DNA of 64,000 bases from an uncultured Methanosarcinales archaeon (GTDB lineage: Archaea > Nanobdellota > Nanobdellia > Woesearchaeales > CAYMBN01). This document shows, in pieces, positions 1,357 to 36,800 of the stretch; the stretch's first letter is position 1; every line of letters begins with the position of its first letter. A program made the position numbers and the translations under genes. Location of the stretch: positions 12,962 through 76,961 of the forward strand of contig CAYMBN010000001.1 in NCBI GenBank assembly GCA_964388715.1, given 5' to 3'. The notes below the pieces were generated by a model. It ran no database searches, was not told where the DNA came from, and was given only the letters and a program-made list of their open reading frames with translations.

Positions 1357-1602
1357 TCTCAAAAAAAGAAAACGTTTGGATAAAGGAGGAAAAACAAAAT
1401 GAAAAAAATGAATTTAGAGGAGAAATGCACTGATGGTGCTGGTTGTATTCATACCAGAGAGACCAACACAAAAATATTTGGATGAGTATTTGAGAGTTTC
1501 AAGACTTTACCGGGAGGGTAAGGTTTCTGAAGATGACCTCAAAAAAGCAGAACAAGAATATCAACAAGTTGTTGAAGCATATAAATGGAGGAGTGGTTAA
1601 AA

Positions 1603-3129
1603 ATGAAATTTGGAAAAGAAGATTTGTCAGTTAAAGATGTTGAAAAGATTGCAAGATCTGAAGAGAAGATTGAACTTTCAGAAGAAAGTAAACAGAGAAT
1701 GCAGAAGAGTAGGGACTTTGTTGAAAAGATGTTTAGGGAAAAACGTCCAGCATATGGTACAACAACAGGTATTGGCGAATTAGCAAATGTTTTTTTAACA
1801 CCAGAGCAAGCTAGAAAGTTTTCAAAATATCTTATCTATAGTCACTCTGGAGGTTATGGTAAACCAGTAAGTAAGGAAAATGTTAGAGCAGCTATAGCTA
1901 CTAGATTGAATGTACTTTGTAAAGGTGTGTCTGGAGTTAGAGTTGAAGTTGTTGAGTTTATTACTGAAATGTTGAATCGTGGAGTAACTCCAATAATGTA
2001 CCCTGCTTCAGTGGGTGCATGTGGTGACCTAGCACCTTTAGCACAAGCAATGTTAGTTCCATTAGGAGAAGGTGAAGCATTTTACAAAGGTAAAAGATTG
2101 TCAGGTAAGGAAGCTTTGAAAAGAGCTGGCTTAGAACCAATCACTTATGAAATTAGAGATGGTTTAGCTGTGATAAATGGTTCACAACTTATTGTTGGGA
2201 TGGGTGCACTAGAAGTAAAAGACACAGATGTTTTAACGAAGACATCTGAGATAGTAGCTGCACTTACTTTTGAAGCACTTAAAGCAGTAACAATGGCATT
2301 TACTGATGAAATTTTGCGCTTAAGAGGTTTTGTTGGTGGAATTAAGTGTGCAAGTAATATTAGAAGATTAATTGAAGGTTCAACTATTCTAGGAAAACAA
2401 GAAAGAGTGCAAGATGCTTATAGTATTCGTTCAACACCCCAAGTGGTTGGTACTATAAAAGATTGTCTTGATTTTGTTAGAAAACAGGTTGAGATAGAAC
2501 TTAATGGTGCAGCAGATAATCCTTTGTTTGTTCCTGAAGGTGATGATGGAAGGTATCTTGCAGGTGCAAATTTCCAAGGTACTCCTGTTGCATTACCATT
2601 AGAACTTTTGGGAATGGGTGCAACAACAATCTCAGTAATTTCAGAAAGAAGATTAAATCGGTTGGTTAATCCAAATTTGAATATTGGATTACCTGGATTT
2701 TTGATTGAAGGAGCAGGATTATACTCTGGCATAATGATTCCTCAATACACTGCAGCATCATTAGTTTGTCAGAACAGAGTGCTTTGTACACCCGCAGCTA
2801 TTGGTTCAATACCTACTGCAGCTGATCAGGAAGATTTTGTTAGTATGGGTACAAACACTGCAATAAAAACAAGAGAAATAATTGACAATAGTTTTGCAGT
2901 AGTTGCAATTGAATTGTTAGCAGCAGTACAAGCAGTTGACTTAAGAATTAAGAAGGAATCTGGGCAGTTAGGAAAAGGAACACAAGTTGCATATAATGTC
3001 GTTAGGAAATATGTGAAGTTCCTGGATGAAGATAGACCTTTGTATCCTGACATTGAAAGATTAGTTAAAGTTGTTAAAAGTGGAGAATTGTTGAAAGCTG
3101 TTGAAGAGGTGATTGGAGAACTGGAATAA
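1603..3129 (+). CDS. hutH: MIO-dependent ammonia-lyase of the histidine/phenylalanine ammonia-lyase family (HAL-like); MIO triad Ala-Cys-Gly
   Basis: Matches HAL blocks: GTTTGIGE, VSGVR, the MIO region SVGACGDLAPLAQAMLVPLGEGEA (canonical is GSVGASGDLAPLAH), NGSQ, SIRSTPQV, ADNPLF and TAADQEDFVSMG (HAL: SANQEDHVSMA). True start ATG 1603 is preceded by GGAGG at 1588-1592. The track start at 1585 is an in-frame upstream ATG lying on the SD. Confidence 0.8.
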   Translation: MKFGKEDLSVKDVEKIARSEEKIELSEESKQRMQKSRDFVEKMFREKRPAYGTTTGIGELANVFLTPEQARKFSKYLIYSHSGGYGKPVSKENVRAAIATRLNVLCKGVSGVRVEVVEFITEMLNRGVTPIMYPASVGACGDLAPLAQAMLVPLGEGEAFYKGKRLSGKEALKRAGLEPITYEIRDGLAVINGSQLIVGMGALEVKDTDVLTKTSEIVAALTFEALKAVTMAFTDEILRLRGFVGGIKCASNIRRLIEGSTILGKQERVQDAYSIRSTPQVVGTIKDCLDFVRKQVEIELNGAADNPLFVPEGDDGRYLAGANFQGTPVALPLELLGMGATTISVISERRLNRLVNPNLNIGLPGFLIEGAGLYSGIMIPQYTAASLVCQNRVLCTPAAIGSIPTAADQEDFVSMGTNTAIKTREIIDNSFAVVAIELLAAVQAVDLRIKKESGQLGKGTQVAYNVVRKYVKFLDEDRPLYPDIERLVKVVKSGELLKAVEEVIGELE

Positions 3130-3175
3130 GTTTTTTCAAAAGGTTTATATAGATTGAGGTATAAAAATACATAGA

Positions 3176-4459
3176 ATGAAACTATCAACTGCAAAAGGAA
3201 CTCGGGATTTTGCGCCTGAAGAGAAAATCATCAGGCAAGAAGTAGTGGGAACTTTCAAAAGAATCTTTGAAATTTATGGATATAATCCTTTAGAAACTCC
3301 ACTTATTGAACGTTATGATACATTAGGTGCTAAATTTGCAGCTGGTGATGCATCTGATGCTCTGCGCGAAACTTTTAAATTAACTGATCAAGGTAAACGT
3401 GAGTTAGGGTTAAGGTTTGATCTTACTGTTCCTTTTTGTCGTTTTGTTGGTATGAATTCTAATATGAAAATGCCGTTTAAGAGATATCAAATGGGGCCTG
3501 TTTTTAGAGATGGTCCAATTAAACTTGGAAGGTATAGGCAGTTTGATCAGTGTGATGTTGATATAGTTGGATCAAGTAATCCTTTGTCTGATGCAGAAAT
3601 TTTAATGGTTGTTGATTCTTTTTTTAAAGCATTAGGAATGCCTGTTTTAATTGAAGTTAATAATAGGAAAATCCTGAATACAATTCTTGATTATGCAGGA
3701 GTTGAAGAACAAAAACGTTTTGAAGCGATGATTTCAATTGATAAATTAAAAAAGATTGGTGAAAAAGAAGTTAAAAAAGAATTGAAACAAAGAGGACTTA
3801 AAGATGGACAAATTAAAAAAATTATAAAATGTTTTGTTAAAGCTAAAAATAATAAAGCAACATTGGCTGGATTGAAAAAAATTATTAAATGTGAAGATGG
3901 TTTAAAGCAAGTTGAAGAGATTCTTGGTTATCTTTCTGTTGCTGGTGTTAAAGATGTTGTTTTTGAGCCAACTTTGGCTCGTGGTTTGGCTTATTATACT
4001 GGACCAATATTTGAGGTTTTTTTGAAAAAGTCTGAAATTAAAAGTTCTGTTGCTGGTGGTGGCAGGTATGATAAGATGATTGGTCAGTATTTGGGAACTA
4101 ATAAACAATTTCCTGCAACAGGAATATCTTTTGGAGTGGATGTTATTTGTGAGGCACTTAAGTTGAAGAGGAAGATGGTTAAAAAGTCTGTTGCAGATGT
4201 TTTTGTTATTCCAATTGGAACTTTAAAAGAAAGTTTAAAGATTGCGCAGGAGTTAAGGAGTAAAGGTATTAAGGTGGACATGGATATTGTTGGAAAAGGG
4301 ATTAGTAAGAATCTGAATTATGCAAATAGTTTGAATATTCCTTATGTAATATTTGTTGGTGAAGATGAAGTTAAGAAGAAGAAAGTTAAATTGAAGAATA
4401 TGCAGAGTGGTAAAGAGAAATTATTAGCTGTTTCTGGTGTTATTAAAGAGCTGAAATGA
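3176..4459 (+). CDS. hisS: histidyl-tRNA synthetase
   Basis: Class II HisRS motifs: KGTRDFAPEE, RFDLTVPFCRFV, GGGRYD, GISFGVD, plus a C-terminal anticodon-binding-like region. Full length, 427 aa. Confidence 0.9.
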   Translation: MKLSTAKGTRDFAPEEKIIRQEVVGTFKRIFEIYGYNPLETPLIERYDTLGAKFAAGDASDALRETFKLTDQGKRELGLRFDLTVPFCRFVGMNSNMKMPFKRYQMGPVFRDGPIKLGRYRQFDQCDVDIVGSSNPLSDAEILMVVDSFFKALGMPVLIEVNNRKILNTILDYAGVEEQKRFEAMISIDKLKKIGEKEVKKELKQRGLKDGQIKKIIKCFVKAKNNKATLAGLKKIIKCEDGLKQVEEILGYLSVAGVKDVVFEPTLARGLAYYTGPIFEVFLKKSEIKSSVAGGGRYDKMIGQYLGTNKQFPATGISFGVDVICEALKLKRKMVKKSVADVFVIPIGTLKESLKIAQELRSKGIKVDMDIVGKGISKNLNYANSLNIPYVIFVGEDEVKKKKVKLKNMQSGKEKLLAVSGVIKELK

Positions 4460-6940: not shown

Positions 6941-7191
6941 ATGTGATTGAAGTAACAGGTTATGCTGCGATGATTGTTATGGCTATTTCTCTTACTCCGC
7001 AGGTTATTAAGTCGTGGAGAACTAAGTCAACAAAAGATATTTCTCTTCTTTGGAATTCACTTTATCTTTTTGGATTGTTTCTTTGGTTAATATATGCTGT
7101 TGGAATTAAAGCAATACCACTTGCAGGAGCGTCTATATTAGAATCAATATTAGCGATTTCTTTGATAGTGTTGAAGTTGATGTATGGTTAG
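6937..7191 (+). CDS. SemiSWEET / PQ-loop small membrane transporter
   Basis: 84 aa with 3 predicted TM helices and a PQ motif (LTPQVIKSWRTKST) in TM1. It overlaps the SDR stop by 4 nt (ATGA). Confidence 0.6.
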   Translation: MNVIEVTGYAAMIVMAISLTPQVIKSWRTKSTKDISLLWNSLYLFGLFLWLIYAVGIKAIPLAGASILESILAISLIVLKLMYG

Positions 7192-7233
7192 AAGATATAA
7201 ATATTTATAAGTAATTCTTAATTTTGGATTTTT

Positions 7234-7821
7234 ATGAGGCAAATAGTATTATCTGGAACATCTCATGCAGGGAAAACTGATCTATTCAATACTTTTGTTG
7301 CAAAAGGTTTTAATACAGTAGAAGAATCAGAAACATCAATTGTACAATGGTTAAAGAATAGATATGGTGCAGAAGCAGCTGGAGAATGGATATTAGCAAA
7401 TTATTTTGAATTTAAAAGTAGGGTTGCAAAAAGACAAGCTAGATTAGAATCAAAGATTGTTGCTGCAGATAATGAAATTGTTATTTATGATAGATCTGCA
7501 ATATGTTGGATTGCTTATTGTAATTTAAGAAACATTCCTGTACCACCTTTGTTAGAAGAACTAGCAAGTCAGTATAAGTTTGAACATGTGTTCTTTTGTG
7601 AAATGTTGCCTAATTTTAATGAGAGAAGAGAAGAAGGTAGAGTAATGAAAGTGGAAGAAGCTATTAAACTCCAAGGGTTAATTGATTATGAGTACAGAAA
7701 AAGAGGTTATGATCCATTTTATCTTCCTAATATATATTCTGACAGAAAACAAAATAATCAGGCTAGATTAGAATGGATTGAAAAAGTTATAAGTTCAAAT
7801 AAATATGTTAGAACTTGGTAA
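7234..7821 (+). CDS. P-loop NTPase / kinase-like protein
   Basis: Walker A motif GTSHAGKT at the N-terminus and a Walker B-like IVIYDRS; about 195 aa. The family is uncertain (NadR/AAA_28-like). Confidence 0.5.
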   Translation: MRQIVLSGTSHAGKTDLFNTFVAKGFNTVEESETSIVQWLKNRYGAEAAGEWILANYFEFKSRVAKRQARLESKIVAADNEIVIYDRSAICWIAYCNLRNIPVPPLLEELASQYKFEHVFFCEMLPNFNERREEGRVMKVEEAIKLQGLIDYEYRKRGYDPFYLPNIYSDRKQNNQARLEWIEKVISSNKYVRTW

Positions 7822-7915
7822 ATTTACCTAAGAGTTTATAAAGAAAGCTGCTTTATCACTTAATATGGGAAATATTTGCTCTATTTTTTGAATATAATGT
7901 TTTCTTACTTGAAAA

Positions 7916-8035
7916 ATGGTCGACTATAAAATAATTAAATTTTGTAAATGGTGCAAGGCAAGGTTTGTAGTACAGAAAGGAGAATCTAGAAGATATCTTT
8001 GTGATAAATGTGAAAAACAACAAAAAAAACAATAA
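7916..8035 (+). CDS. possible small zinc-ribbon protein (39 aa)
   Basis: Unlisted ORF MVDYKIIKFCKWCKARFVVQKGESRRYLCDKCEKQQKKQ with CxxC-x17-CxxC. No SD. It could be spurious. Confidence 0.25.
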   Translation: MVDYKIIKFCKWCKARFVVQKGESRRYLCDKCEKQQKKQ

Positions 8036-8066
8036 GTTTAATAATTGAACCAAAAATCTTCTTACT

Positions 8067-9395
8067 ATGAAAAAAATCCTATTAATTTACCTTCCGTTTT
8101 GTACTCCTGCAAGCCCGCCTTATTCAGTTATTTCTCTTTATTCATTTCTAAAAAATAATTCTAATCATAAAATAGAAGTTTTAGATTTAAACTTAGAGTT
8201 TCATAAGCTTAAATTTTCAAAATATCAAAAATATTTTCAGAATTCGAAAAAATGGAAGGATTATGATAAAGTTACGAAGGAATTTCAGGAATTATCTAAA
8301 AAAACGTACTCTGAAAACAATAAAAAAGTTGTTGATGGGAAAAAACCAGAATTTTTTGAACAAATATTATGGAAAATAAAAGAAAAAAAACCAGATATAA
8401 TTGCTTTTAGTATTGTTTATTCAAGTCAAGCGTTTTATGCATATGCTTTAATGAAAGAATTGAAGAATGTTGTGATTGGTGGACCAGCTGTGAATGAAAA
8501 ATTGATTAAATTGGCTGATAAATGCTTGAATAATGAAATGGAACTTCTTGATTTTGTTAGTGGTCAGGAAATAAAACATGACAAACTTAAATTTAATTTT
8601 CCTCTTGACTTTTCTGTTCTTGATTTAAAACAATATTTTACTCCGTATCCTGTTATACCTATCAGAACATCAAATACCTGTAATTATAAACAATGTACAT
8701 TTTGTTCTCACTTTAGCACTGTGTCATATTGTGAATTTGATTTGAATGTTGTGAAGAAAACTGTTGTTGGTTCAGGGCAGAAGTATTTCTTTATAATAGA
8801 CGATACAATTCATAAAAAAAGATTGTTGGAAATAGCTAAAATGTTGAAACCTTTGAAAGTTAACTGGATGTGTCAATTAAGGCCAGTGAATGGGTTGGAT
8901 TTTAAAACTTTGAAGAAGTCTGGGCTTAAAATGATTATCTGGGGTGTTGAGTCTGGTTGTCAACGTGTTTTGAATCTTATGAAGAAAGGTACTCAGAAAA
9001 AAGATGTGATTAAAGTTTTATCTGATTCGCATAAAGCAGGAATTAAGAATGTTTTGTATATTATGTTTGGGTTTCCTGGAGAAAGCAAGGAAGAATTTTT
9101 GGAAACTATTGATTTTTTGAAACAGAATGATGTGAATATTGATTTGATTTCGGTTTCTGTGTTTGGTTTGCAAAAAGGTACAGAGATTTATAAAAATTAT
9201 AAAAAGTTTGGAATTACTAGAATCATTGAAAAGAAAAGGACTGTTCTAGAACCAAAGATTAGTTATGAAGTTAAAGAAGGGTTAAGTCAGGAACAGGTAT
9301 TGAAGTTAAGAAAAGGGCATAAGAAAACAATTGATAACATCAATAAGTATCCTAAATTAATGAATTTCTTTAGAGAACATATGTTTATCTTGTAA
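8067..9395 (+). CDS. B12-binding domain / radical SAM protein
   Basis: N-terminal B12-binding-like domain (IIAFS...VIGGPAV). Cluster motif CNYKQCTFC (Cx4Cx2C, at 8679-8705). Radical SAM core motif WGVESGCQRVLNLMKKGT. Confidence 0.7.
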   Translation: MKKILLIYLPFCTPASPPYSVISLYSFLKNNSNHKIEVLDLNLEFHKLKFSKYQKYFQNSKKWKDYDKVTKEFQELSKKTYSENNKKVVDGKKPEFFEQILWKIKEKKPDIIAFSIVYSSQAFYAYALMKELKNVVIGGPAVNEKLIKLADKCLNNEMELLDFVSGQEIKHDKLKFNFPLDFSVLDLKQYFTPYPVIPIRTSNTCNYKQCTFCSHFSTVSYCEFDLNVVKKTVVGSGQKYFFIIDDTIHKKRLLEIAKMLKPLKVNWMCQLRPVNGLDFKTLKKSGLKMIIWGVESGCQRVLNLMKKGTQKKDVIKVLSDSHKAGIKNVLYIMFGFPGESKEEFLETIDFLKQNDVNIDLISVSVFGLQKGTEIYKNYKKFGITRIIEKKRTVLEPKISYEVKEGLSQEQVLKLRKGHKKTIDNINKYPKLMNFFREHMFIL

Positions 9396-12381: not shown

Positions 12382-15300
12382 TTATTCAATCTTATCAAAC
12401 ATTACTTCAAATTCTTCTCTTCTGACTTTTTCTTTAGAGTTATGAGTGTGTTCTTTGGCAGGGTCCATGTTAGAAATCCTAATATGTTCTGCACCGCACT
12501 TTTGTTTGATCATTTTTTCATATGATTTAACCATTTCAAGCAGATCGTCACTTACTTTTATGAATAATGTGATGTTGTCTGTTTTTTGTAAGCCAGCTTT
12601 TTTACGTGCAGCTTGTACTCTACGCATTATTTCACGAGCATAACCTTCTGCGTCAAGTTCGTCAGTACGTTCTGCGTTAATGTAAACAAAACCACCTCTG
12701 AATTCTGCTTCGTGATAAGGACTAGGAACTTCACGAATATGTATTAAATGTTCTTTCACAATTGAAACACTTTCTCCATTTACAACAAGTGGAAGTTTTC
12801 CTTGTTTTTCAATCTTACTCAGGATTGTATTTGGACTCATTGTTGCTAATTGTGCAATTATTGCAGGTGATTTGTTACCAAAGTCAGGGCCAAGTTTGTT
12901 AAAATCTGCTTTAACTGATTCTTTGATCTTGTCAAAGCTTTTGACAACAGTAATTTCTTTTACATTTGTTTGATTTTTTATGATGTCACTTAGTTTATCA
13001 ATAGCTTCTTCTGCTGTTTTTGTTTTTGCAACAATAACAACTTCTTTAAGTGGCCATCTAATTCCTAACTTAGCTTTTTCTCTTGCATATAAGATTGATT
13101 GTATAATTTGTTTGATAATGTCCATGTTTTTTTCAAGTTCTTCATTGATCAGGTTTATATCTGCCTGAGGCCAATTGAAAAGGTGAATACTTTCTTGTTC
13201 TAGTGCAAAGTTCATTTTTAGGTTTTGGTACATTGCTTCTGTTATGAATGGTGCAACAGGTGCAAACAGTTTTAATGTTCCAAGTAAGACATGATATAGT
13301 GTGTAAAGGATTGTCTTTTTGTCTTCTTCTGTTCCAAAAGTAGATTTTTCTCTTATCAATTGTACATATGTTCTGCTTAGACTAAGGAAAATTTCTTCGA
13401 TAGCCCAAGGAATTTCGTTTAATTGGTATTGATTGAATAGTTCAGTTACTTTTACAATTGTTGAATTAAGTTTTGAGAATATGTATTTTTCTTCTAATGC
13501 TAATTTGTTTTTTGCAATGAACTTAGGGTTTTGGTTAAGTTCTTTTGAAAGTTGTATTAAATAATTATGAAGGTTCCATAATATGCTGAGGTTTCTGTTT
13601 TTAACTTTCATATCTTCAAAATTATAATTGATGTCAACTCCTGGGACAGTGCCGCCTATCATGTAGTATCTTAAAGTGTCTGCACCATACTTGTCAACAA
13701 CTTCTTCAGGTAAAATATAATTACCAAGACTTTTGCTCATCTTTCTACCTTGTGAATCTTGGATAAAGCCGTGCATATAAACTGATTTGAAACTTGGTTT
13801 TTGCATTCCAACCATTGAGCATACCATGAGAATGTTGAACCAACCTCTGATATGGTCTTTACCTTCTAAAATGAATTCAGAAGGAAACATTTTCTGAAAT
13901 AAATCTGTTCTTTGTGGATAATCAAGACATGTCCATGAAGTTGTACCTGCGTCAACCCATACGTCAAGTACATCAGGGATTCTTATCATTGTTCCGCCAC
14001 ATTTGCATGGATATTTAACTTCATCAATCCATGGTTTGTGTAAATCTTCTGGAACTTGTTTTGCTTTTTGTTGAAGTTCTTTAACACTTCCTATAACATC
14101 ATATAAATCACATTTGTCACATCTCCAGATTGGCACTGGACATCCCCAGTAACGTTGTCTTGTGATACTATTATCTCTAAGATTAGTTAACCATGCGTCA
14201 AATTGTGCAGCGCCTGCCCAATTAGGTTGCCAGAATATTTTTTTGTTGTACTCAATCATTTGTTCAACCATATCTTCTGCTTTAAAGAACCATTGTGTTG
14301 TTGTTCTGAATATAACAGGACTTTTACAACGCCAACAATGTGCATAATCGTGTTCAACTTCTGTTGATTCAATTAAGATACCTCTTTCTTTGAAGTCTTC
14401 AATAAACTTATGATCATCATCTTTTGCAATCCAGCCTGAGTATTTTCCCATGTTATCTGGGAATACGCCTGTTTCATTCAGGTTATTGAATGGTGGGATA
14501 TTGTTTCTGTGGCCAACTTCATAATCTTCAGGGCCGCAACCAGGTGCTGTGTGTACTAAGCCAGTACCTGCGCTTAAGTCAACATATTCTTTTGATAAAA
14601 GTACTGTGTGTGTTTTTGGATGGTTGTTTTTGATTTCTTTGAAATCAACTTGGTCTTCTAATGGGTTAATATATTCAAGACCTTCTAATTTTTCTCCTTT
14701 GAATTCTTCTAGAATTTCATATTTTTTACTGATTAATCCTAGGAATGCACCAAGTAAACCTTTTGAAACAATCCAGACTTCGTCATCTACTTTTGCTCTT
14801 ACATAATCTAGTTCAGGATTAACCATGATTGCTAAATTAAAAGGAATTGTCCATGGAGTTGTTGTCCAGACAATCAGGAATTCATTTTCTTTGTTTTTTA
14901 CTTGGAATTTTAAGAAAACAGAATCATCTTTTACATTTTGATATTCAAGCTCGTGTTTTGCTAAGGCTGTTCCACATTTAGGACACCAGGTCATTGTTTT
15001 TTCGCCTTCATACAGACGTTTGTTTTTGTGTGCTTGTTTGATTAACCACCATTCACCTTCAATAAATGATGTTTTTATTGATTGGTATGCGTTTTCAAAG
15101 TCCATCCAGACACCTAAACGTTGGAAATCTTTGTTCATCTCTTTCATATTGTCTGTGCAAAGTTTTATACATTCTTTAACGAATTTGTCTACGCCAAACT
15201 TAGGAATTTCATCTTTATGTTTGATGCCTAACTTTTTTTCTACTGCATGTGCTGTTGGTAATCCGTGCATGTCATAACCTGCTCTGTCCCAAACATCAAA

Positions 15301-15510
15301 ACCATTCATTCTTTTGAATCTAAGAACCATATCTTTTAGTGCTTTGTTCCAAGCAGTACCAAGATGTACTTTACCTGATGTGTATGGAGGACCATCTAAG
15401 AAATAGAAGTGTTTTCTATCTTCATTCTTTTTCTGAGCTTTTTGATGAATCTGGTTCTTTTTCCAGAATTCAAGTGTCTCAGGTTCTTGTTTTAATGGTT
15501 CGTATTTCAT
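12382..15510 (-). CDS. ileS: isoleucyl-tRNA synthetase
   Basis: 1042 aa. Class I signature PPYTSGKVHLGTAWNK (HIGH-type), KMSKSLGN, CP1 editing-domain length, C-terminal Zn-binding cysteines (CPKCGT, CWRCKSP, CDKC). Confidence 0.95.
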   Translation of the reverse strand: MKYEPLKQEPETLEFWKKNQIHQKAQKKNEDRKHFYFLDGPPYTSGKVHLGTAWNKALKDMVLRFKRMNGFDVWDRAGYDMHGLPTAHAVEKKLGIKHKDEIPKFGVDKFVKECIKLCTDNMKEMNKDFQRLGVWMDFENAYQSIKTSFIEGEWWLIKQAHKNKRLYEGEKTMTWCPKCGTALAKHELEYQNVKDDSVFLKFQVKNKENEFLIVWTTTPWTIPFNLAIMVNPELDYVRAKVDDEVWIVSKGLLGAFLGLISKKYEILEEFKGEKLEGLEYINPLEDQVDFKEIKNNHPKTHTVLLSKEYVDLSAGTGLVHTAPGCGPEDYEVGHRNNIPPFNNLNETGVFPDNMGKYSGWIAKDDDHKFIEDFKERGILIESTEVEHDYAHCWRCKSPVIFRTTTQWFFKAEDMVEQMIEYNKKIFWQPNWAGAAQFDAWLTNLRDNSITRQRYWGCPVPIWRCDKCDLYDVIGSVKELQQKAKQVPEDLHKPWIDEVKYPCKCGGTMIRIPDVLDVWVDAGTTSWTCLDYPQRTDLFQKMFPSEFILEGKDHIRGWFNILMVCSMVGMQKPSFKSVYMHGFIQDSQGRKMSKSLGNYILPEEVVDKYGADTLRYYMIGGTVPGVDINYNFEDMKVKNRNLSILWNLHNYLIQLSKELNQNPKFIAKNKLALEEKYIFSKLNSTIVKVTELFNQYQLNEIPWAIEEIFLSLSRTYVQLIREKSTFGTEEDKKTILYTLYHVLLGTLKLFAPVAPFITEAMYQNLKMNFALEQESIHLFNWPQADINLINEELEKNMDIIKQIIQSILYAREKAKLGIRWPLKEVVIVAKTKTAEEAIDKLSDIIKNQTNVKEITVVKSFDKIKESVKADFNKLGPDFGNKSPAIIAQLATMSPNTILSKIEKQGKLPLVVNGESVSIVKEHLIHIREVPSPYHEAEFRGGFVYINAERTDELDAEGYAREIMRRVQAARKKAGLQKTDNITLFIKVSDDLLEMVKSYEKMIKQKCGAEHIRISNMDPAKEHTHNSKEKVRREEFEVMFDKIE

Positions 15511-27803: not shown

Positions 27804-30800
27804 TTAAACAGTTACACTTCCAGTTTGTTGATTATTGTCTTCATTTATTTCTTGGATTAAGTTATCATAATCAGCTGTCACAGTAACTGGGTAAGTTCCA
27901 CTTTCAGTAAATTTAACTAAAGTGTAAACAATTGTATCTTGACCAACTTCAACTGTTAATGGTTCTTTGTTAACTGGGTTATTACCCTCAGGGCCTGTGT
28001 CAATTATCCAGTTAACGTTTTCAGCTTTTTTATTTCCTTTATTTGAGATTATGAATTTAACAAACATATTAGTTCCTATTTTTCTTGCAGGTTCAAAGTT
28101 GCTAACTTCTAGATCTGGTAAAGGATTGACTGTGATTTTAATCCTTTCTGTATCACTAAATTGGTTGTCACTTACTGTGATTCTGAATTTGTGTGTACCA
28201 AAATCACCTGAATCTGTCTGCCAGGTGAATACATTGTCATTTTGTTCAAATCTTGAATCATCTATTGAATATTCAAGTTGATCTTTGTCAGGGTCTGATC
28301 CTTGAACAGTGATAATGATTTCATCTGTTTCAGTATATTCAATTTCATAATCAATTGAATCAATCTTTGGTCTGTGCAGGTTTTGATAATCACATGGATA
28401 AGTGTTGTTTTCTGGTGGATTATTATCATCTTCTAGGTCTGTTAATTCAAAACAATTGTTTATGTCATTATACCAACCATTGATTAAGTTATTTTCCATG
28501 CATCCTGTTTTTTCTTCAACCCATTCAGGAGCACAATAGTCACAGGAAAGTGCTTTGTAATCAGTAAATATTATATCATCAACTTCATCGCAGTTGTGTT
28601 CATCATATTGTGTTAAGGTTCTTATTTGTAATTGAGTATCATTGTTTAAACATTCTGTGTGATCTGACCATTCGCTCCAAGAAGTGTTTGAGAGTAATGG
28701 AGTACATGAATCACATGTTCTTGATTGTGTTTCATTTGCATGTGGGTTTTCTTCAGCACAATTGTAAATGTCATAATAATATTTTGTTCTTGTTTTTAAA
28801 TCATCTATGCACTCACTCCATTCTGTATAATCAAATTCCCAGTTAGGTGTACAATAATCACAAGGGATTGTTTGATAATCAGTGAATGTTAGATTGTCAA
28901 TTTCATTACAATTGTACTCATCATACTGTGTTAATGATTTTACTTGTTCTTTGGTGTTATCACTTTGACATTCAGTATGGTTGGACCATTCACTCCATGA
29001 TGTGTTTGTGAGTAATGGTGTACATGAATCACATTCTTGTGTTTGAGTTTCATTTTCATAAGGATTTTCTTCATCACAGATTTTTGCATCAAAGTAAAAT
29101 TTGGTTCTAGTTTCTAAATCATTTACACACTCACCCCAATCAGTATAATCTGGAAGCCAATCTGGAGTGCAAAAGTTACATGATATTGTTTGGTAATCAG
29201 TGAATGTAGTATTATCAATTTCATTGCATGTTTTTTCATCGTATTGAATTAGTGTTCTAATTTGTTGTTGAGTATCATCTGGTTGGCATTCTGTGTGATT
29301 AGACCATTCTGTCCAGGAAGTATTGGTTAGTAAAGGTGTACAATAGTCACATGTTTGGTTGATTACAGAAGTTGAATTGTACTTAATCTGTATCTCATAT
29401 AAATATAGGTTTCTTCCTGTTACAAAAGACCTTCCATAAATATCAATAGCTAAATCTGAATTATAGGAAATGCATTCTTGTGGTATCTTAATGTCAGTGA
29501 GACTATTAACACTTGAGGTAAACTCTTTAAATGTTGTAAAGGAATTAGTATCATAACTGAAACAATTGAATTTTAATTCTACATTACCCCATGAGCCTAT
29601 TACTTTATGTTGAAGTATAACACCATCTTCAAATTGTGGTAAATAAGAATAATTTACATAAATATGTCCTGATCTTGGCCAACCAGTTGATCCGTCTAAG
29701 TTTGAGTAAGTTGATAAATCACTATCAAATGCTCTTTCATAGTGGGACCATTGTCCAACTTCAATTATACTTTTTTCATTATTAGATTCAACTAACTCTG
29801 TAAATTCTTCACCACATCCCTTAGTGTCATAATAATTTTTAAATTGAATATCAGTTGGTTCACATTCTGTCCAGGTTTCATTCAAAACCCAGTGAGGTGT
29901 GCAGTAATCGCATGCTTGTTTTTGTGTAATATTATTATGTGGGTTAGGTTCTTCGCAATTATTTGAATCATAATAATATCTTATTCTTGATTTAGTATCG
30001 TCTGGTTGACAGTCTGTCCATTCTGTGTAATTAACTTCCCAATTGGGTATGCAAAAGTCACAAGTTACTGTTTGATAATCTTCAAATGTTGTATTTTGGA
30101 TTTCATTACATGTTTTCTCGTCATATTGGGTTAAGGTTCTGACTTGTTGTTGAGTATCATTTGGTTGACATTCTGTGTTGTTGGACCATTCGCTCCATGT
30201 GGTATTGGTTAGTTGTGGTGTGCAATAATCACAAGTTTGATTTATTTGGGTGAAAATTGGTATTTCAGTATGCCACCATATTGCTTCTTCATAAAAGACC
30301 ATTGCAGATGGATTTAAACACATCCATCTATTACCTCCATAAGTACACCCAGTGTTATAATCATTGTCGTACATTTTAGTAGGAGAACTATATCCTGTAC
30401 CTCCGCAAGAAGTTCCTTTAGTTCCTGCGCCCAAATTTTTCCAACCTGTTTTTGTGAGGCATTGGGGTTGGATTCTAAAGGCAGCACATACTCCAACTCT
30501 TAAAATTAAATGATCTTCATCATGATTGTAGCAATCTGAATTTGTATTAATGGAAATATTTTCAAATATTACATTGTCACTTCTATTTTGATATTTTAAC
30601 TGCCATTTTGCATCATAACCCTTCTTTTTTGTATAATTTACATAAAGGAAACCATTGAGCGGGTGGGCTTTGTCAGCTTGTTCTTGGAATAAAAGTACTT
30701 GTTCCATTGGTTCTTCTTCACAATTGTTAGTGTCATACCAATTAGTATATTGAATATCACCTAGTTCACATTCTGTCCAGGTTTCGTTCAAAATCCAATT

Positions 30801-33800
30801 AGGAGTACAGTAATCGCAAGATATTGTTTGGTAATCAGTGAATGTAACATTGTTAACTTCATCACAGGTGTTTTTGTCATATTGCGTTAATGCTCTGACT
30901 TGCTCTTGAGTATCATCTGGTTGGCATTCTGTATTGTTGGACCATTCGCTCCATGAAGTGTTGGTTAGTTGTGGTGTACAGAAGTCACAAGTTACTGTTT
31001 GGTAATCAGTGAAAGTAACATTGTCTACTTCTTTACAAGTATTCTCGTCATACTGAGTTCTTGTTCTACTTTGCATTTGATTATCATTGACTGAACATTC
31101 TGTATCATTTATCCATTCACTCCAGGATGTATTTGTTAGTAATGGTGTGCAGAAATCACATTTGTAAGTATTGTTTTCTGGAAGTTGATCTGATTCTAGA
31201 TTGGTTGTTTCATAACAATTGTTATTGTCTGTGTAAAATTCAATTATTTCATCTGAAACTAAGCAAGATGTGTTATGTGCTACAAAGTCTGGAATACAAT
31301 GGTCACAACTTATTGTAAGGTTATCCATGAATCCTTCAAGGTCTGATTCAAGTTGTGTTTGTGCATGACAATTGTTTTCATCTAATAAATATAATGTGTA
31401 ATTATCTCGGATACTACATTTTGTTTGATGTTCAATCCAGTTTGGTGAACAATAATCGCATTCATAAGTATTGTTTTCTGGTAATGAATCACTTACAAGT
31501 TGAGTTTGTGAATAACAATTGTTATTATCTGTATAGTATTCAATGATTTCATCTGAAGGTGAACATGATGTGTTATGAGCTACAATATCTGGTGTACAAC
31601 AATCATAAAAGATGATTTCAGTTTCATTTGCATGAGGATTTTCTTCTGCACAGTTGTTTGTATCATAATAATATTTTATTCTTGTTTTTAAGTCAGCTTG
31701 GCAGTCGCTCCATTCTGTGTAATTAACTTGCCAATCTGCTACACAAACATCATTAACAGTAACAATCATATATTCATAGGTTTTGGCTTTGTTTTCATCT
31801 TCTGCAATAAAAGTAATATTGTATTTTCCAGCATCATCATAGCCAGGAGTAAAATATAAAGCATAACTATTTTCACCTATTTTGTTTTGAGTAATCCAAT
31901 TAGGAAGATTTTCATAGGAAAGATTAACTTTATCTCCATCTTTATCTGAAACTTGGAATGATATAAGTGTCCCTCCTTGACTTTCATTTAATTCTATATT
32001 GGAAATGGCGGTTATCTCAGGAGGCCTGTTTATATTGTTTACAGTTATAGTGGCAACTTTCTCATCGCTTCCACCTTTACCATCTTCTGCAATAAAGGTG
32101 ATTGGGTAAACTCCTGCTTGGTCAAAATTAGGGGTCCAACTAAATTCACAATAAGTGCCTTGGGTTACTGGGTCATAATGTAAAATACTACAATCAAGTT
32201 CAGCACCTTGTGGTAAGGTTTCAGATGAGTTTAGTTTAACTCTGCTTCCTTCTGGGTCTAATGCTAATATATGGAATGAAACTTTTTTGCCTTCGTCAAC
32301 TTGAGTGTCATCAATATCGTCTATAAAAGGCGCATAGTTAAGCACTTTTAATATAAGGTTGTCATATGTTGGTCCTGGTTGTGAATGTAACCAACCACCA
32401 AGTAATATTTCAGATGTTTCGAATTGAGTATCATTTGTATCTATATCTAAAACAATTGTGTCATCATAATATGCTTTGTAATTACCGTCTCTAAATACAA
32501 GTTTATAATAATGCCAATCTTTATCTCCGTTTAAGTCTGTTTTATATCTGTTATTGTTAACTACTAATAATAAATCATTGTGACCGTTCCATGCTTTACA
32601 ATAATCAGCACCATAACTTAGTGTTTCATTTCCAGATTGGTTTTTGAATCTTACTGTTGCACCTCTACAATCTAATTTGTTTAGGTTTGCATAAAAGCCA
32701 ACTTCAAAGTAATTTGTATTAAGGTTCATTGGTTTGCTTAATCTAGGACTACAGAAACCACAGGTTGGAGTTAAATGATTATCTATAACATCCCAAGTGC
32801 CAACTTTTTTTGTCCAATCATCAATAGAGTCGTCATTAAAATTATCACAGAGTTCATATTCTCCTTCACAATTTTCTTCAGGTATACTTTCTATTACAAC
32901 TATTTTTATTGGACTTGAGGCACTGTATGTACCATCACTTACTGTAACTTCAATATCATATTCACCTGCATCATCGTAATTTGTTTGCCAGATAAATGTT
33001 GAACTGTGGGATTGGAATCTATCGTCGTTAATTGAATAATTTAGATCATCTTCATCTGGATCAGATGCTTCTACTGTGATTATTATTTCATCACCTTCAT
33101 TATATTCTTCTTGATAATTAATTGAATTAATGGTTGGTGCATGTAAGGATTCATAATCGCATTCATAGGTGTTGTTTTCTGGGAGTTGATCTGATTCTAA
33201 ATTAGTTGTTTCATGACAATTATTATTGTCAGTATAATATCCAATAATTTCGTTTGATGTTAAACAAGACGTATTATGTTGAATTGGGTCAGGTATGCAA
33301 TAGTCGCACTGTTCCATTTCTGTAACATTGTCATGAGGATTTGGTTCTTCACAAGTGTTTAAGTCATAATGGAATTGTATTCTTGATTTAGTATCATCTG
33401 ATTGACAATCTGTCCATTCTGTGTGATCTATCTGCCAGTCTGGAGTACAGAAGTCACAGAAGATTGTTTGATAATCTGTGAAGGTAGTATTGTCCACTTC
33501 GTTGCAGGTATTTTCATCGTATTGGGTTAGTGATCTTACTTGTTCTTGAGTGTCATTTGGTTGACATTCTGTATGATTAGACCATTCAGTCCAAGAAGTG
33601 TTTGTTAGTAAAGGTGTACAATAGTCACAGGAGATGGTTCTGTAATCAGTAAATGTTGCATTGTCAACCTCATTGCAGGTGTTTTCATCGTATTGAGTTA
33701 ATGTTCTTGTTTGCTCTTGTGTATCATCAGCTAAACATTCTGTACCATTTATCCATTCACTCCATGAAGTGTTTATTAGAGACGGTGTACAATAATCGCA

Positions 33801-36800
33801 CCAAGCAGTTGTGTCTTCTGGTTTATTACAATCTGAAAGTAAGCTTGTTTGTTCACAACATAAGTTAATATATTCATAAGTTACATCATAGTAATCATCT
33901 GGATGGCAAGTTGAATTTTCGTTTCTCCAAGTTGAGTTACAATAATTACATTCAATTGTTTGATTGTTTGTTTGGTTTTCTAAGTCTGATGCTAGATTTG
34001 TTTGTGCATGACAAGTGTTTTCATCTAAATAATATTCTATATAATTATCCAGTGTTGAACAGTCTGTTTCGTGTTTGATCCAGTTAGGTGTACAATAATC
34101 ACATTGTTCTATTTCTGTAACATTGTCATGAGGATTTGGTTCTTCACAAGTGTTTAAGTCATAATGATATTGTATTCTTGATTTAGTGTCATCTGATTGA
34201 CAATCTGTCCATTCTGTGTGATCTATCCGCCAGTCTGGAGTGCAGAAGTCACAGAAGATTGTTTGGTGATCTGTGAATGTTGTATTGTCTACTTCATTGC
34301 ATGTATTTTCGTCGTATTGTGTTAGTGTTCTTGCTTGTTGTTGAGTGTCATTTGCTAAGCAATCTGTGTTGTTTATCCATTCTGACCATGATGTGTTTGT
34401 TAATTGTGGTGTACAATAATCGCAGGACTGGTTGATTATTGGTGATGATATTTGTTTTTCCCACCATACTCCTGATTCATATAATTTAGCAGAACTATCA
34501 AGACCTCTTGCTAGAGCAAGGAATCTTTCAAATAAGTTTTGCCATCCACCTGAATTATAATTAAAACATTGAGCTTCAAATTCCACATATTCTTCATCTA
34601 TTATTATCAAAGGATCTGTATAGTCTACAAAGAATCTTAATTGTAAAATGCTACTATTTAAACAACCAGATGGGATAGATGCATTGGTAAAATGCTCTTG
34701 ATCCATTACATCTGAATCAAAGTGTATCTTATATTGTACTTTAGCATCTTCTGTATTAAAAGGAATTGAATAATTAAAGAAGTATTCATAAGGTTCTTCC
34801 TGTACCATATTATCATAAGTTGACCAATCATTATCACATGCTTGATCACAATTATCTGAATATCCTATTTCTTGTTCTTGATAGTCCCATAATAAAGATG
34901 AAATGAATTCTTCTTCACACATGTTCAAATCATATACATTTCTGTATTGAATGTCAATTGGATCACATTCTGTCCATGTTTGGTTTAATCTCCAATCCGG
35001 AGTACAAAAGTCGCAAGATATTATTTGGTAATCAGTAATGGTAGTATTGTCTACTTCATCACAGTTGTTTTCATCATATTGTGTTAAAGTTCTGCTTTGT
35101 TCTTGGGTGTCATCAGATAAACAATCTGTATCATTTATCCATTCTGTCCATGAGGTGTTTGTTAGTTGTGGTGTACAGAAGTCACATTGTTCCACTTCTG
35201 TAACATTGTCATAGGGATTAGGTTCTTCACAAGTGTTTGAATCGTAATGGAATTGTATTCTTGATTTTGTATCTCCTGGTTGACAATCTGTCCATTGTGT
35301 GTAATTAATTGTCCAATTTGGTGCACAGGGATTAGGTATATGTTTTATTGATAAGTTAAATATTTCTAATTCTGTTGCTTCTTGAGATTCAATTGTTAAT
35401 GGAATTAAACAATATTTATTTTCGTCAGCTTCACAACTTTCTAATAAACTATTTAACTCATTGTTAAATTCAAGAACTTCTTGGTTGTCAAATATTGAAA
35501 TATCTTTTATTTTCTTATTTTCAAGATAAACTGAAAAATCGTAATATATTGGGCAACCTTCATCTATTTGATTATCACAATCATCATTAATACTATTACA
35601 AATTTCAGTGGCAGCTGGATTTACATTAGTATTAGCGTCATTACAATCAAGATTGTTTGAAACATAACCAGCAGGAGCATTACAAGCTTGTGTTGTTGTT
35701 GAGGAATCACCATATGTGTCTTCATCAGCATCCCTATAGAATGTTGATTGTACATTTTCATCTTCTTCACCATCACAATCATTATCTAAACCATCACAAA
35801 CTTCTTCTTCTGGACCTACTAAACCTTCACAAGTGCCCCATTGTCCATCAGTACATGTTTTTGTTCCGGTTTGACACTCTCCTACGTCAATACCACAGAC
35901 TTCAGTCTCACCATTAATACATTCACAACCACCATCTACTGATCCATCACAATTATCATCAATCCCATTACAAATTTCAGTTGCACCAGGATTTATATTT
36001 GCGTTGTTGTCGTTACAATCTTGATTATTTGAAACATAACCACTTGGTGCACTACAAGCTTGTTTTGTTGTTGAGGAATCTCCGTAGGAATCAGCGTCAG
36101 CATCTCTATAAAATGTTGATTGTACACCTTCATCAGTGCTTCCATCGCAATCATCATCTTTGTTATTACATACTTCTCCTGCATTAGGATTAATATTTCT
36201 GTCAGTATCATCACAGTCATCAGCTTTGCAGATATCAAAGTAATCTCCGTCATACAAATCTTCATCTTGATCACATCTATCTAAACTAGAATCAATTCTA
36301 TAACCACAAGCATCATCTCCAACAGGGATGTAAGTTTTAAGATAATAATATAAAACACCTTCCCGTGCTTCAAATTCTATTTTCTCTTGTTCTGTTCCTG
36401 AGTTATGTGATTCTCCGATAGGCTCACTCGCTGAACATGAATCATAAAGTTCAATATCATAATTTGTATCACATCCTTCCATATTATTTCCAATGAATAA
36501 ACCCATACCATTTTCATTTGCGAAAATTTTATGCCAAGCCATACCTACACTTACAGGCCAACTAGCTCCAAAAGTTTTTTCAGAAGCACTTGAACAAGTA
36601 TCTCCTTGAGTAACAAAACTTTCTGTTACGTAATCTGGATCTTTCCTTAATGCAAAACTACTATTTACAGTTAAAGAATATTTTGGCATTTTGAAATAAA
36701 CAGTATTGTTTCCTGCTTCATTATAAGTTAAAACTTTTGATGTTGTTCCATCTGTAAAGGTTGATAATTCTATATTACAGTCTAGTGAACAGGTTGTGTA

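Follow-up and report, generated by a model that had tools for sequence, protein, structure and literature searches.

The locus analyzed here raises one question of chemistry and one of context: can a histidine ammonia-lyase (HAL) homologue whose cofactor-forming tripeptide reads Ala-Cys-Gly still make the MIO group, and what would such an enzyme do between a tRNA-His gene and the gene for histidyl-tRNA synthetase? MIO enzymes are the textbook case of a cofactor made from a protein's own backbone; to our knowledge, the precursor has always been described as X-Ser-Gly, and the PROSITE signature likewise demands Ser at the middle position of the triad. Within the window (the whole 64-kb stretch of DNA that was analyzed), the features relevant to both questions are as follows:

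720 to 793, + strand: tRNA-His gene, anticodon GTG (ARAGORN; Rfam tRNA, 65 bits), the upstream end of the cassette
815 to 1339, + strand: 174-aa ORF between tRNA-His and the small ORF, from the ORF list, peculiar to this genome's cassette
1433 to 1600, + strand: 55-aa small ORF, annotated as a gene in the source contig; its end lies 2 nt from the start codon of HAL
1603 to 3129, + strand: HAL homologue of 508 aa (Pfam, NCBIfam, and solved-structure matches)
2017 to 2025, + strand: presumed MIO-forming tripeptide Ala139-Cys140-Gly141 (gca-tgt-ggt), opposite the MIO residue of solved structures
3144 to 3151, + strand: TTTATATA element, a possible archaeal TATA box read from the sequence
3176 to 4459, + strand: hisS, histidyl-tRNA synthetase (HisRS), 427 aa, directly 3′ of HAL (Pfam tRNA-synt_His and HGTP_anticodon)

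To place the protein within its family, we compared it with profile models and solved structures. Pfam Lyase_aromatic (PF00221) aligns over its entire length (profile positions 1 to 466 of 466) with residues 14 to 475 at 528.8 bits (cut-off, 27.3); the NCBIfam HAL subfamily model PRK09367/NF006871 scores 538.1, above its cut-off of 524, and the hutH equivalog TIGR01225 scores 521.3, just under its cut-off of 539.15. Homology to solved HALs is unambiguous: they are the closest solved structures (E = 1e-99 to 1e-77), the nearest relative being 7tqr, a probable HAL (E = 5.7e-99). Translation probably starts at the ATG at 1603, which is preceded by GGAGG at 1587 to 1591 and is where the database protein P0001 begins; a second ATG in the same frame, at 1585, is an alternative. 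The catalytic set, which in P. putida numbering is Tyr53, Ser-His83, Asn195, Gln277, Tyr280, Arg283, Phe329, and Glu414, corresponds here to Y51, H81, N192, Q270, Y273, R276, F324, and E410 by motif and spacing. Each of these positions, together with S80 of the S80-H81 pair, is 100% conserved in the clade of close relatives, and the same catalytic positions are 89 to 100% conserved among 281 other family members.

The initial annotation described an Ala-Cys-Gly triad in an otherwise canonical surrounding motif, a description that both the sequence and the solved-structure alignments bear out. Direct reading from 2011 to 2040 gives gtg ggt gca tgt ggt gac cta gca cct tta, or V-G-A-C-G-D-L-A-P-L, with the triad codons in frame with the ORF at 1585..3129 (+) and Cys140 (P0001 numbering) encoded by tgt at 2020 to 2022; the triad is thus Ala-Cys-Gly in place of the canonical X-Ser-Gly (Ala-Ser-Gly) of the PF00221 family. 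In HMMER alignments with solved HAL and tyrosine aminomutase chains, "gacgdlapla" lies opposite "vgXdlapla", with X standing for the MIO residue of the crystal structures 7tqr, 6v6h, and 2rjr. This alignment places the Cys140 triad at the MIO position and excludes the concern, raised at the outset, that the motif had been misplaced.

The same annotation had named an error at 2020 to 2022 as a possible refutation, and one base does separate Ser from Cys codons (TCT or AGT to TGT); nevertheless, the probability that a true Ser codon lies behind this Cys is next to nil. Four recorded contigs encode exactly the same 508-aa protein, three of these records representing three samples (two ENA assemblies and one Logan run), and independent assemblies of different samples agree. 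At the DNA level, loci L001 and L002 are 100% identical over 12,279 nt. Ala-Cys-Gly is present in 42 of the 46 matched sequences of the clade (at least 66% identity), and Cys occurs in about 130 further sequences outside those 46 members. The Cys codon at the triad site is TGT in 35 cases and TGC in 101 across loci, and the use of both shows that the amino acid itself is selected. The identical protein from three samples and the two Cys codons rule out an artefact of sequencing or assembly.

The substrate, left open in the initial annotation, can be narrowed to histidine by the Ser-His switch, Glu410, the HAL subfamily model, and the tRNA-His/hisS neighbors; with no HAL catalytic residue lost, and with the Ser-His switch and the HAL-specific Glu among those retained, histidine is the most likely substrate. 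An ammonia-lyase for tyrosine or phenylalanine would share some of the observed features, as would a 2,3-aminomutase: the protein scores 380.8 bits with the tyrosine 2,3-aminomutase model and about 293 bits with solved tyrosine aminomutases, and the loop after the catalytic Tyr, "YGTTTGIGE", is nearer to "YGVTTGYGE" of SgTAM than to the HAL-typical "YGVNTGFG". However, none of the four curated TAL, PAL, TAM, and PAM models scored reaches its threshold (TIGR03832, 380.8 vs. 501; TIGR04475, 355.5 vs. 800; NF053541, 342.2 vs. 700; TIGR01226, 204.4 vs. 519), all lying far under their cut-offs, whereas the HAL subfamily model passes. E410 is of the HAL type, lying opposite Glu in both HAL alignments shown and opposite Gln in tyrosine aminomutase. 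The gene is moreover flanked by tRNA-His and HisRS, and relatives with the same features adjoin urocanase. We therefore regard a tyrosine or phenylalanine enzyme as highly improbable.

We then asked how exceptional the Cys is. The earlier description of it as uncommon holds family-wide, where Ala-Cys-Gly appears in 4 of 133 representatives of 50%-identity clusters (the less biased frequency), but fails in a large uncultured radiation in which it dominates: 77 of the 80 GTDB genome loci among the matches listed, from uncultured bacteria and archaea, carry Ala-Cys-Gly, a biased frequency in that the underlying scan was driven mainly by the peptide DQEDFVSM and returned almost only bacterial Ala-Cys-Gly HALs. 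A neighbor-joining tree of 326 sequences requires at least 15 Ser/Cys switches. Enzymes that are 92 to 95% identical differ at the middle residue of the triad, and in a group of 32 sequences with a median identity of 88%, Ser (14) and Cys (18) are interleaved. No co-varying column that would signal a compensating change accompanies the swap in that group, and the family-wide columns that discriminate Ser from Cys enzymes look phylogenetic. Within the DPANN clade, Cys is reconstructed as the ancestral state, from which Ser arose again about four times; one such revertant (P0018) sits in the same cassette of MazE-like gene, small ORF, HAL, and HisRS. Triads of the types SSG, CSG, and TSG were also found among the sampled relatives. 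Cys is a widespread natural alternative to Ser, the two repeatedly interchanging, and the pattern of exchange suggests that they are close to neutral alternatives at the triad middle.

The genomic surroundings of other Ala-Cys-Gly enzymes bear on whether they function. They lie directly beside urocanase in Poseidoniales (L072 and L073), and beside urocanase and an amidohydrolase in an Elusimicrobia genome (L085); these urocanase-adjacent cases support the view that Ala-Cys-Gly enzymes are catalytic. Among the matches listed, hutU is present in 3 of the 80 loci, and the bacterial Ala-Cys-Gly HALs have no dominant conserved neighbor among the 80 loci listed.

The best explanation of these observations, and one in which we place considerable confidence, is that the gene probably encodes a working MIO-dependent HAL of a DPANN archaeon, with Ala-Cys-Gly as the MIO precursor and loss of H2S during maturation. 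We infer MIO formation, departure of the sulfur as H2S, and histidine as substrate. In the proposed sequence, the Ala139 carbonyl would be attacked by the Gly141 amide nitrogen to close the ring, the ring would lose water, and the Cys140 side chain would leave as H2S, not H2O, leaving the exocyclic methylidene-imidazolone that canonical enzymes also carry; L-histidine would then be converted to trans-urocanate and ammonium by the usual deamination. The exchange of H2S for water is most likely by analogy with the S143C mutant of P. putida HAL, which reportedly matures to fully active enzyme in work attributed to Langer, Lieber, and Retey (1994).

Alternatively, Cys140 could be retained, in an unmodified loop or in a thiol-bearing heterocycle, and the protein could be a non-MIO thiol enzyme or could bind histidine without any catalysis, for instance as a sensor or partner of the neighboring HisRS/tRNA-His unit. 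MIO-free members of the fold do exist, as illustrated by ergothionase 6s7j, which is among the solved-structure matches and lacks MIO. Our literature search found no description of a natural Cys at the eliminated middle residue of the MIO triad and no natural Ala-Cys-Gly protein with a demonstrated MIO; the DPANN context is odd and non-catabolic, with tRNA-His and hisS flanking and no hut genes nearby; and the DPANN clade departs from the family at two positions that are at least 95% conserved (Gln74 to Ser and Gly135 to Ala/Thr). On the other hand, the clade shows 100% conservation of all residues for MIO chemistry and histidine binding, among them D142, N192, and F324, which contribute to cyclization and to packing around the MIO. 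In addition, Ser and Cys swap freely and uncompensated, even inside the same cassette, which is hard to reconcile with a distinct catalytic role for Cys; Ala-Cys-Gly enzymes occur in urocanase operons elsewhere; and the engineered S143C enzyme is reportedly fully active. Retention of the thiol is thus quite unlikely, and we favor its elimination as H2S.

The initial annotation had regarded a HAL/PAL-type enzyme as notable in a reduced archaeal genome; we agree, and the genomic context is even more unusual. tRNA-His is the sole tRNA gene in the 64-kb window, and a tRNA-His gene likewise precedes HAL, in the same orientation, in L005, L007 (two copies), L087, L089, L096, L172, and L173; the copy in L004 has an intron. 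The order in the DPANN clade is tRNA-His, small ORF, HAL, and HisRS; this cassette, with HAL followed by HisRS, is present in 14 of 14 loci with enough downstream sequence, and in close DPANN relatives without HAL, tRNA-His stands directly before hisS. The synthetase scores 373.2 with TIGR00442 (hisS; cut-off 286.75), and its relatives point to a Woesearchaeota/Nanoarchaeia-like organism. Pairwise identities of HAL and HisRS show only a moderate correlation (Spearman 0.49), which would fit one ancient insertion with subsequent losses and repeated transfer alike. No gene for urocanase (hutU) or imidazolonepropionase (hutI) was found in the 64-kb window or in the sequence flanking 15 related DPANN loci, so a catabolic purpose is not evident.

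Upstream of HAL, about 10 of 13 clade loci have an ORF of 45 to 82 aa that abuts the gene, and these ORFs have a weak C-terminal pattern in common. The 55-aa ORF belongs to this fast-evolving small-ORF family directly 5′ of HAL; it matches no credible Pfam family, and since its last codons overlap the GGAGG ribosome-binding site of HAL, the resemblance may in part be one of nucleotide sequence. The 174-aa ORF has no Pfam match and no counterpart in the other DPANN loci. The cassette is often preceded by an AbrB/MazE-type regulator gene. A sigma-70 promoter and terminator scan is uninformative for an archaeon. Downstream, the spacer between HAL and hisS, only 7 to 30 nt in most relatives, is 46 nt here and contains the TTTATATA element about 28 nt before the hisS ATG; if this is a TATA box, hisS could also be transcribed alone in this genome.

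For the physiological role, the reading that we favor is an overflow valve combined with co-transcription: surplus scavenged histidine would be shed as ammonium and excreted urocanate by a HAL expressed together with the histidine-charging machinery. HAL has a Km that is usually millimolar and HisRS one that is micromolar, so that competition between them would not arise at low histidine levels. The TATA-like TTTATATA element could uncouple hisS in this genome, which would count against co-transcription here. More generally, and only tentatively, the DPANN Ala-Cys-Gly HAL may be a non-catabolic part of a histidine-decoding module, in which a two-gene unit of small ORF and HAL entered an already existing tRNA-His/hisS pair precisely at its junction, perhaps on more than one occasion; in such a module HAL would set or supply the free histidine for tRNA charging, either as an overflow valve or by urocanate amination.

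The second of these modes would make the protein a normal MIO HAL that, in these host-dependent archaea, works mainly in the aminating direction, salvaging histidine from environmental urocanate and ammonium, with HisRS and tRNA-His drawing the product into translation. The equilibrium of MIO lyases lies strongly toward elimination, with a Keq of molar order, and opposes this direction, because micromolar histidine would need an unrealistically high product of urocanate and ammonium concentrations; furthermore, no urocanate transporter was identified. Consistent with amination are the position of HAL between tRNA-His and hisS in the 14 clade loci, set beside the direct tRNA-His/hisS adjacency of HAL-less relatives, the lack of downstream hut genes in the window and the 15 DPANN loci, and the general lack of amino-acid biosynthesis in DPANN archaea (PMC8421398; PMC8407392). 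A survey of DPANN mentions HutH in 12% of Micrarchaeota only, and searches of the literature for urocanate in DPANN and for the HAL equilibrium returned nothing relevant. On balance, net amination seems unlikely, and we retain the overflow valve as the favored role.

These results show extensive natural use of Cys in the eliminated position, chiefly among uncultured lineages, of which many come from low-oxygen habitats. If the proposed maturation holds biochemically, nature would have provided evidence of a route to MIO that releases H2S; signatures and annotation rules restricted to Ser would then have to be relaxed, and the set of templates for engineering MIO lyases, enzymes with uses in biocatalysis and therapy, would be wider. 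An amino-acid-degrading enzyme strictly between a tRNA-His gene and hisS is an unusual placement, and the cassette offers a testable handle on scavenged amino-acid pools in organisms unable to make amino acids.

Comparison with known systems sets these features in relief. The nearest solved relative, 7tqr, aligns at 335 bits over residues 12 to 505, with an MIO residue at the aligned position and the Ser-His motif common to both proteins; its triad is shown as X in the deposited chain, where the precursor is unreadable. The two differ in the residue after E-D, where "QEDH" of 7tqr has His and "QEDF" of the present protein has Phe, and in "NFHG" of 7tqr vs. "NFQG" here. Natural Thr-Ser-Gly, Ser-Ser-Gly, and Cys-Ser-Gly triads still give MIO; in these, the first residue is altered, whose side chain is not eliminated, whereas here the alteration falls on the eliminated middle residue, and Cys in place of Ser would make the leaving group H2S instead of water. 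P. putida HutH (1b8f, 1gkm, and other entries) has the same fold and belongs to the same family (263 to 273 bits to the solved chains), and its S143C mutant has the same Ala-Cys-Gly precursor; that triad was engineered, whereas the one described here is natural, selected, and lineage-wide. The canonical hutH-hutU-hutI arrangement is approached by the urocanase-adjacent Ala-Cys-Gly HALs of Poseidoniales and Elusimicrobia. In contrast to P. putida HutH, which resides in a hut operon, the HAL of this window is flanked by tRNA-His and hisS; hutU and hutI were found neither near it nor near its counterparts in the 15 DPANN loci, where the conserved neighbors are tRNA-His and HisRS.

Nucleotides 2011-2040 of the window read gtg ggt gca tgt ggt gac cta gca cct tta, and the triad codons lie in frame with the ORF at 1585..3129 (+), giving Ala139-Cys140-Gly141 in the numbering of P0001, the 508-aa database copy of the window's histidine ammonia-lyase (HAL), which starts with the ATG at 1603, preceded by a GGAGG at 1587-1591. 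HMMER alignments pair "svgacgdlapla" with "svgXdlapla" of the solved chains 7tqr and 6v6h, and the triad also pairs with the equivalent position of the solved tyrosine aminomutase 2rjr; in all three depositions, X is the MIO residue. Since the triad stands opposite this residue, a placement away from the MIO position fails, and the claim of the initial annotation that 2017-2025 encodes Ala-Cys-Gly as the MIO-forming triad of a HAL/PAL-family lyase is upheld. We also reject a sequencing error as the source of the Cys: a protein identical to P0001 is recorded on four contigs (the three places shown are three samples), two of these contigs (L001, the locus matching the window, and L002) are 100% identical in DNA across 12,279 nt, and the relatives use both Cys codons, TGT in 35 loci and TGC in 101.

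Pfam assigns the protein a single full-length Lyase_aromatic domain (528.8 bits), and the top two NCBIfam models are HAL models. At 538.1, the score for NF006871, the HAL subfamily model, exceeds its cut-off of 524, and that for the strict hutH equivalog model, 521.3, is below its 539.15; every score for the NCBIfam aminomutase, TAL, and PAL models is far under the cut-off. The closest solved structures are HALs: 7tqr (E = 5.7e-99), 6v6h, and P. putida entries. We assessed conservation in an alignment of 326 family members, with the P. putida catalytic set matched to the query by motif and spacing. Residues Y51, S80-H81, N192, Q270, Y273, R276, F324, and E410, as well as D142 directly after the triad, are 100% conserved in the query's clade and are highly conserved family positions matching the P. 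putida set. S80-H81 corresponds to the "substrate switch" known from HALs (PMC11432326). Opposite Glu410, both of the solved HAL alignments shown have Glu, and tyrosine aminomutase has Gln. The clade departs from the family at just three highly conserved positions: besides the Cys, Gln74 is replaced by Ser and Gly135 by Ala/Thr, two sites at which the other sampled family members are at least 95% conserved. The Gln74 site lies at about 1822-1824 of the window, within the "LQxNL..SH" stretch, and the Gly135 site at about 2005-2007, five residues ahead of the Cys. Judged from its sequence, the protein is most aptly called a HAL whose MIO precursor is a natural variant; the observation holds, and its first interpretation was essentially right.

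The query's clade is tight (P0001-P0047, at least 66% identity), with source labels of Aenigmatarchaeota, Nanoarchaeota, Diapherotrites, or plain "archaeon." Among its 46 members with a match at the motif, 42 carry Ala-Cys-Gly, and P0018, P0031, and P0036 carry Ala-Ser-Gly; Ser-Ser-Gly is found in P0071, which falls outside the clade. HMMER was run exhaustively against 1.84 billion 50%-identity representatives, and the 133 best matches with a recognizable motif comprised 118 Ala-Ser-Gly, 8 Ser-Ser-Gly, 4 Ala-Cys-Gly, 2 Cys-Ser-Gly, and 1 Thr-Ser-Gly; across the family, Cys is therefore rare (about 3%). In GTDB species genomes, a scan biased by its search pattern, the peptide DQEDFVSM, recovered Ala-Cys-Gly in 77 of 80 loci among the matches listed. 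These loci derive from Aminicenantes, Terriglobales, Eubacteriales, Cloacimonadota, Ignavibacteria, Zixibacteria, Elusimicrobia, Planctomycetota, Thermoplasmata, Poseidoniales, and other groups, and a metagenome scan added many further loci, which together therefore define a large, mostly uncultured radiation with Cys as its usual state. Thus, the description of the Cys as uncommon holds for the family as a whole but not within this radiation; Ala-Cys-Gly is a widespread, evolutionarily labile state and no singleton oddity. In the literature searched, no paper pairs Ala-Cys-Gly with MIO enzymes, and the variant state is not described there.

A neighbor-joining tree analyzed by Fitch parsimony requires at least 15 Ser/Cys changes, and residue 140 differs (Ser versus Cys) within enzyme pairs that are 92-95% identical. 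In a 32-member group (median identity 88%), 14 Ser forms are mixed among 18 Cys forms, and no other column follows the switch (best association 0.48). Within the DPANN clade, Cys is inferred to be ancestral, and Ser to have returned about four times; the clade's sister sequence is Ala-Cys-Gly too, and P0018, a Ser revertant, shares its gene cassette with the Cys forms. This pattern, which is expected if both residues give the same mature cofactor, shows the swap to be evolutionarily near-neutral and argues against a special catalytic role of the thiol.

The cassette (tRNA-His, small ORF, HAL, and histidyl-tRNA synthetase, HisRS, encoded by hisS) is arranged in the window as follows:

720-793, + strand, tRNA-His (GTG)
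815-1339, + strand, 174-aa ORF with no assigned function
1433-1600, + strand, 55-aa small ORF
1603-3129, + strand, HAL
3176-4459, + strand, HisRS

The tRNA-His(GTG) is the sole tRNA gene across the 64-kb window. The 55-aa ORF, in which no known domain was found, ends 2 nt ahead of the HAL start, and its 3' end overlaps the HAL ribosome-binding site. Within the 46-nt HAL-hisS spacer, some 28 nt ahead of the hisS ATG, the element TTTATATA at 3144-3151 may be an archaeal TATA box from which a leaderless hisS transcript would start, and with it hisS may have a promoter of its own in this genome. An isoleucyl-tRNA synthetase lies downstream of the cassette at 12382-15510 (-); six clade loci, including the window, L005 (2233-5292), L087, L088, and L089, have this gene 3-9 kb from the cassette, mostly upstream.

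HisRS follows HAL on the same strand in 14 of 14 DPANN-clade loci with enough downstream sequence (window/L001, L002, L004, L005, L007, L087, L088, L091, L092, L096, L098, L171, L172, and L173), usually after a spacer of 7-60 nt, and the flanks beyond the pair vary from locus to locus. L096 is an exception in its spacing, with ~1 kb (7110-8092) between HAL and hisS. Outside the clade, a HisRS match appeared in 1 of 79 loci of the genome set among the matches listed (L052, 1.3 kb from HAL) and in none of the 68 loci of the metagenome set; with both sets pooled, HisRS is nearby in 1 of ~147 such HAL loci, again among the matches listed. A tRNA-His lies upstream of HAL in nine loci (window, L004, L005, L007 with two copies, L087, L089, L096, L172, and L173), and no other tRNA type was found in these nine. 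The tRNA-His/HAL/HisRS cassette is specific to the DPANN clade, which adds some interest to the triad finding. The tRNA-His copy in L004, the complete 833-kb genome CP070662.1, spans 7853-7978 with a 54-nt intron after the anticodon loop; it was missed by ARAGORN and found by the Rfam tRNA model. An integrase-like ORF and a run of N stand just upstream of it.

In ~10 of 13 loci, a fast-evolving small ORF directly adjoins the HAL start; its family is weakly conserved, the L091 and L092 members being only ~35% identical versus 94% for their HALs. Often upstream of the unit is a small DNA-binding regulator of the AbrB/MazE/MraZ type (Pfam scores: MraZ, 32 bits; MazE_antitoxin, 34 bits), whose length is inflated in some loci where the called ORF continues through the tRNA-His gene:

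L004, 7615-8010, AbrB/MazE/MraZ-type gene
L005, 6813-7214, AbrB/MazE/MraZ-type gene
L088, 4915-5334, AbrB/MazE/MraZ-type gene
L097, 1-171, AbrB/MazE/MraZ-type gene
L171, 3627-3851, AbrB/MazE/MraZ-type gene
L173, 3530-3805, AbrB/MazE/MraZ-type gene

The regulator is absent from the window, which has the unrelated 174-aa ORF (815-1339) in its place.

The window's closest HisRS relatives (58-64% identity, labeled Woesearchaeota/Nanoarchaeota) are without HAL, and in three of the four examined, a tRNA-His lies 47-200 nt upstream of hisS:

L167, 3880-3951, tRNA-His; hisS start 4001
L169, 3727-3798, tRNA-His; hisS start 4001
L170, 3862-3953, tRNA-His; hisS start 4001

Because tRNA-His precedes hisS in these HAL-less relatives, this pair appears to be ancestral, with the small ORF and HAL inserted between its two genes in a subset of genomes. 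Between loci, HAL identities (64-78%) exceed HisRS identities (37-54%), and the correlation is only moderate; one ancient insertion with losses and repeated insertion at the tRNA-His locus are both possible. The contigs L001 and L002, which stem from different samples, match at 100% over 12,279 nt and then part abruptly inside hisS (about window 3881), which leaves their HisRS proteins at only 87% identity; recombination between strains, a variable insertion domain, and a join in the assembly are all possible causes of the break. Among DPANN HisRS homologues, some are longer fusions: P0272 (636 aa) has His_biosynth/PcrB-type Pfam matches, and a tRNA_SAD editing-type domain is present in P0277, P0323, and P0370 (580-593 aa).

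Neither the window nor the flanking sequence of 15 related loci yielded a urocanase or imidazolonepropionase homologue. We favor a reading in which HAL would act as an overflow valve: co-expressed with the charging machinery, it would shed scavenged histidine, with ammonium released and urocanate excreted. The main alternative, salvage of histidine by the reverse HAL reaction, is a good fit to the synteny; however, that direction is thermodynamically unfavorable, and we regard such salvage as very improbable. Two adjacent giant genes, 27804-44087 (-) and 44649-53027 (-), occupy 38% of the window and encode, respectively, a 5,427-aa product with Ig-like, PKD, He_PIG, and CARDB domains and a 2,792-aa product that begins with a subtilase domain at its N terminus (Peptidase_S8, 189 bits). 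Each has the look of a cell-surface or scavenging protein, as would be expected in DPANN archaea, and the subtilase-bearing one fits a peptide-scavenging lifestyle.

The precursor is Ala-Cys-Gly, and the machinery around the triad is intact. We propose that cyclization and dehydration would proceed as in other MIO enzymes, with β-elimination expelling H2S in place of water and yielding the same methylidene-imidazolone. Two Poseidoniales MAGs contain an Ala-Cys-Gly HAL that directly adjoins urocanase, and in an Elusimicrobia MAG, such a HAL adjoins urocanase and an amidohydrolase; these neighborhoods match the canonical hut arrangement. The P. putida S143C mutant, which Langer, Lieber, and Retey reportedly found in 1994 to mature to fully active enzyme, is a precedent for the H2S-eliminating route proposed for the window's HAL.
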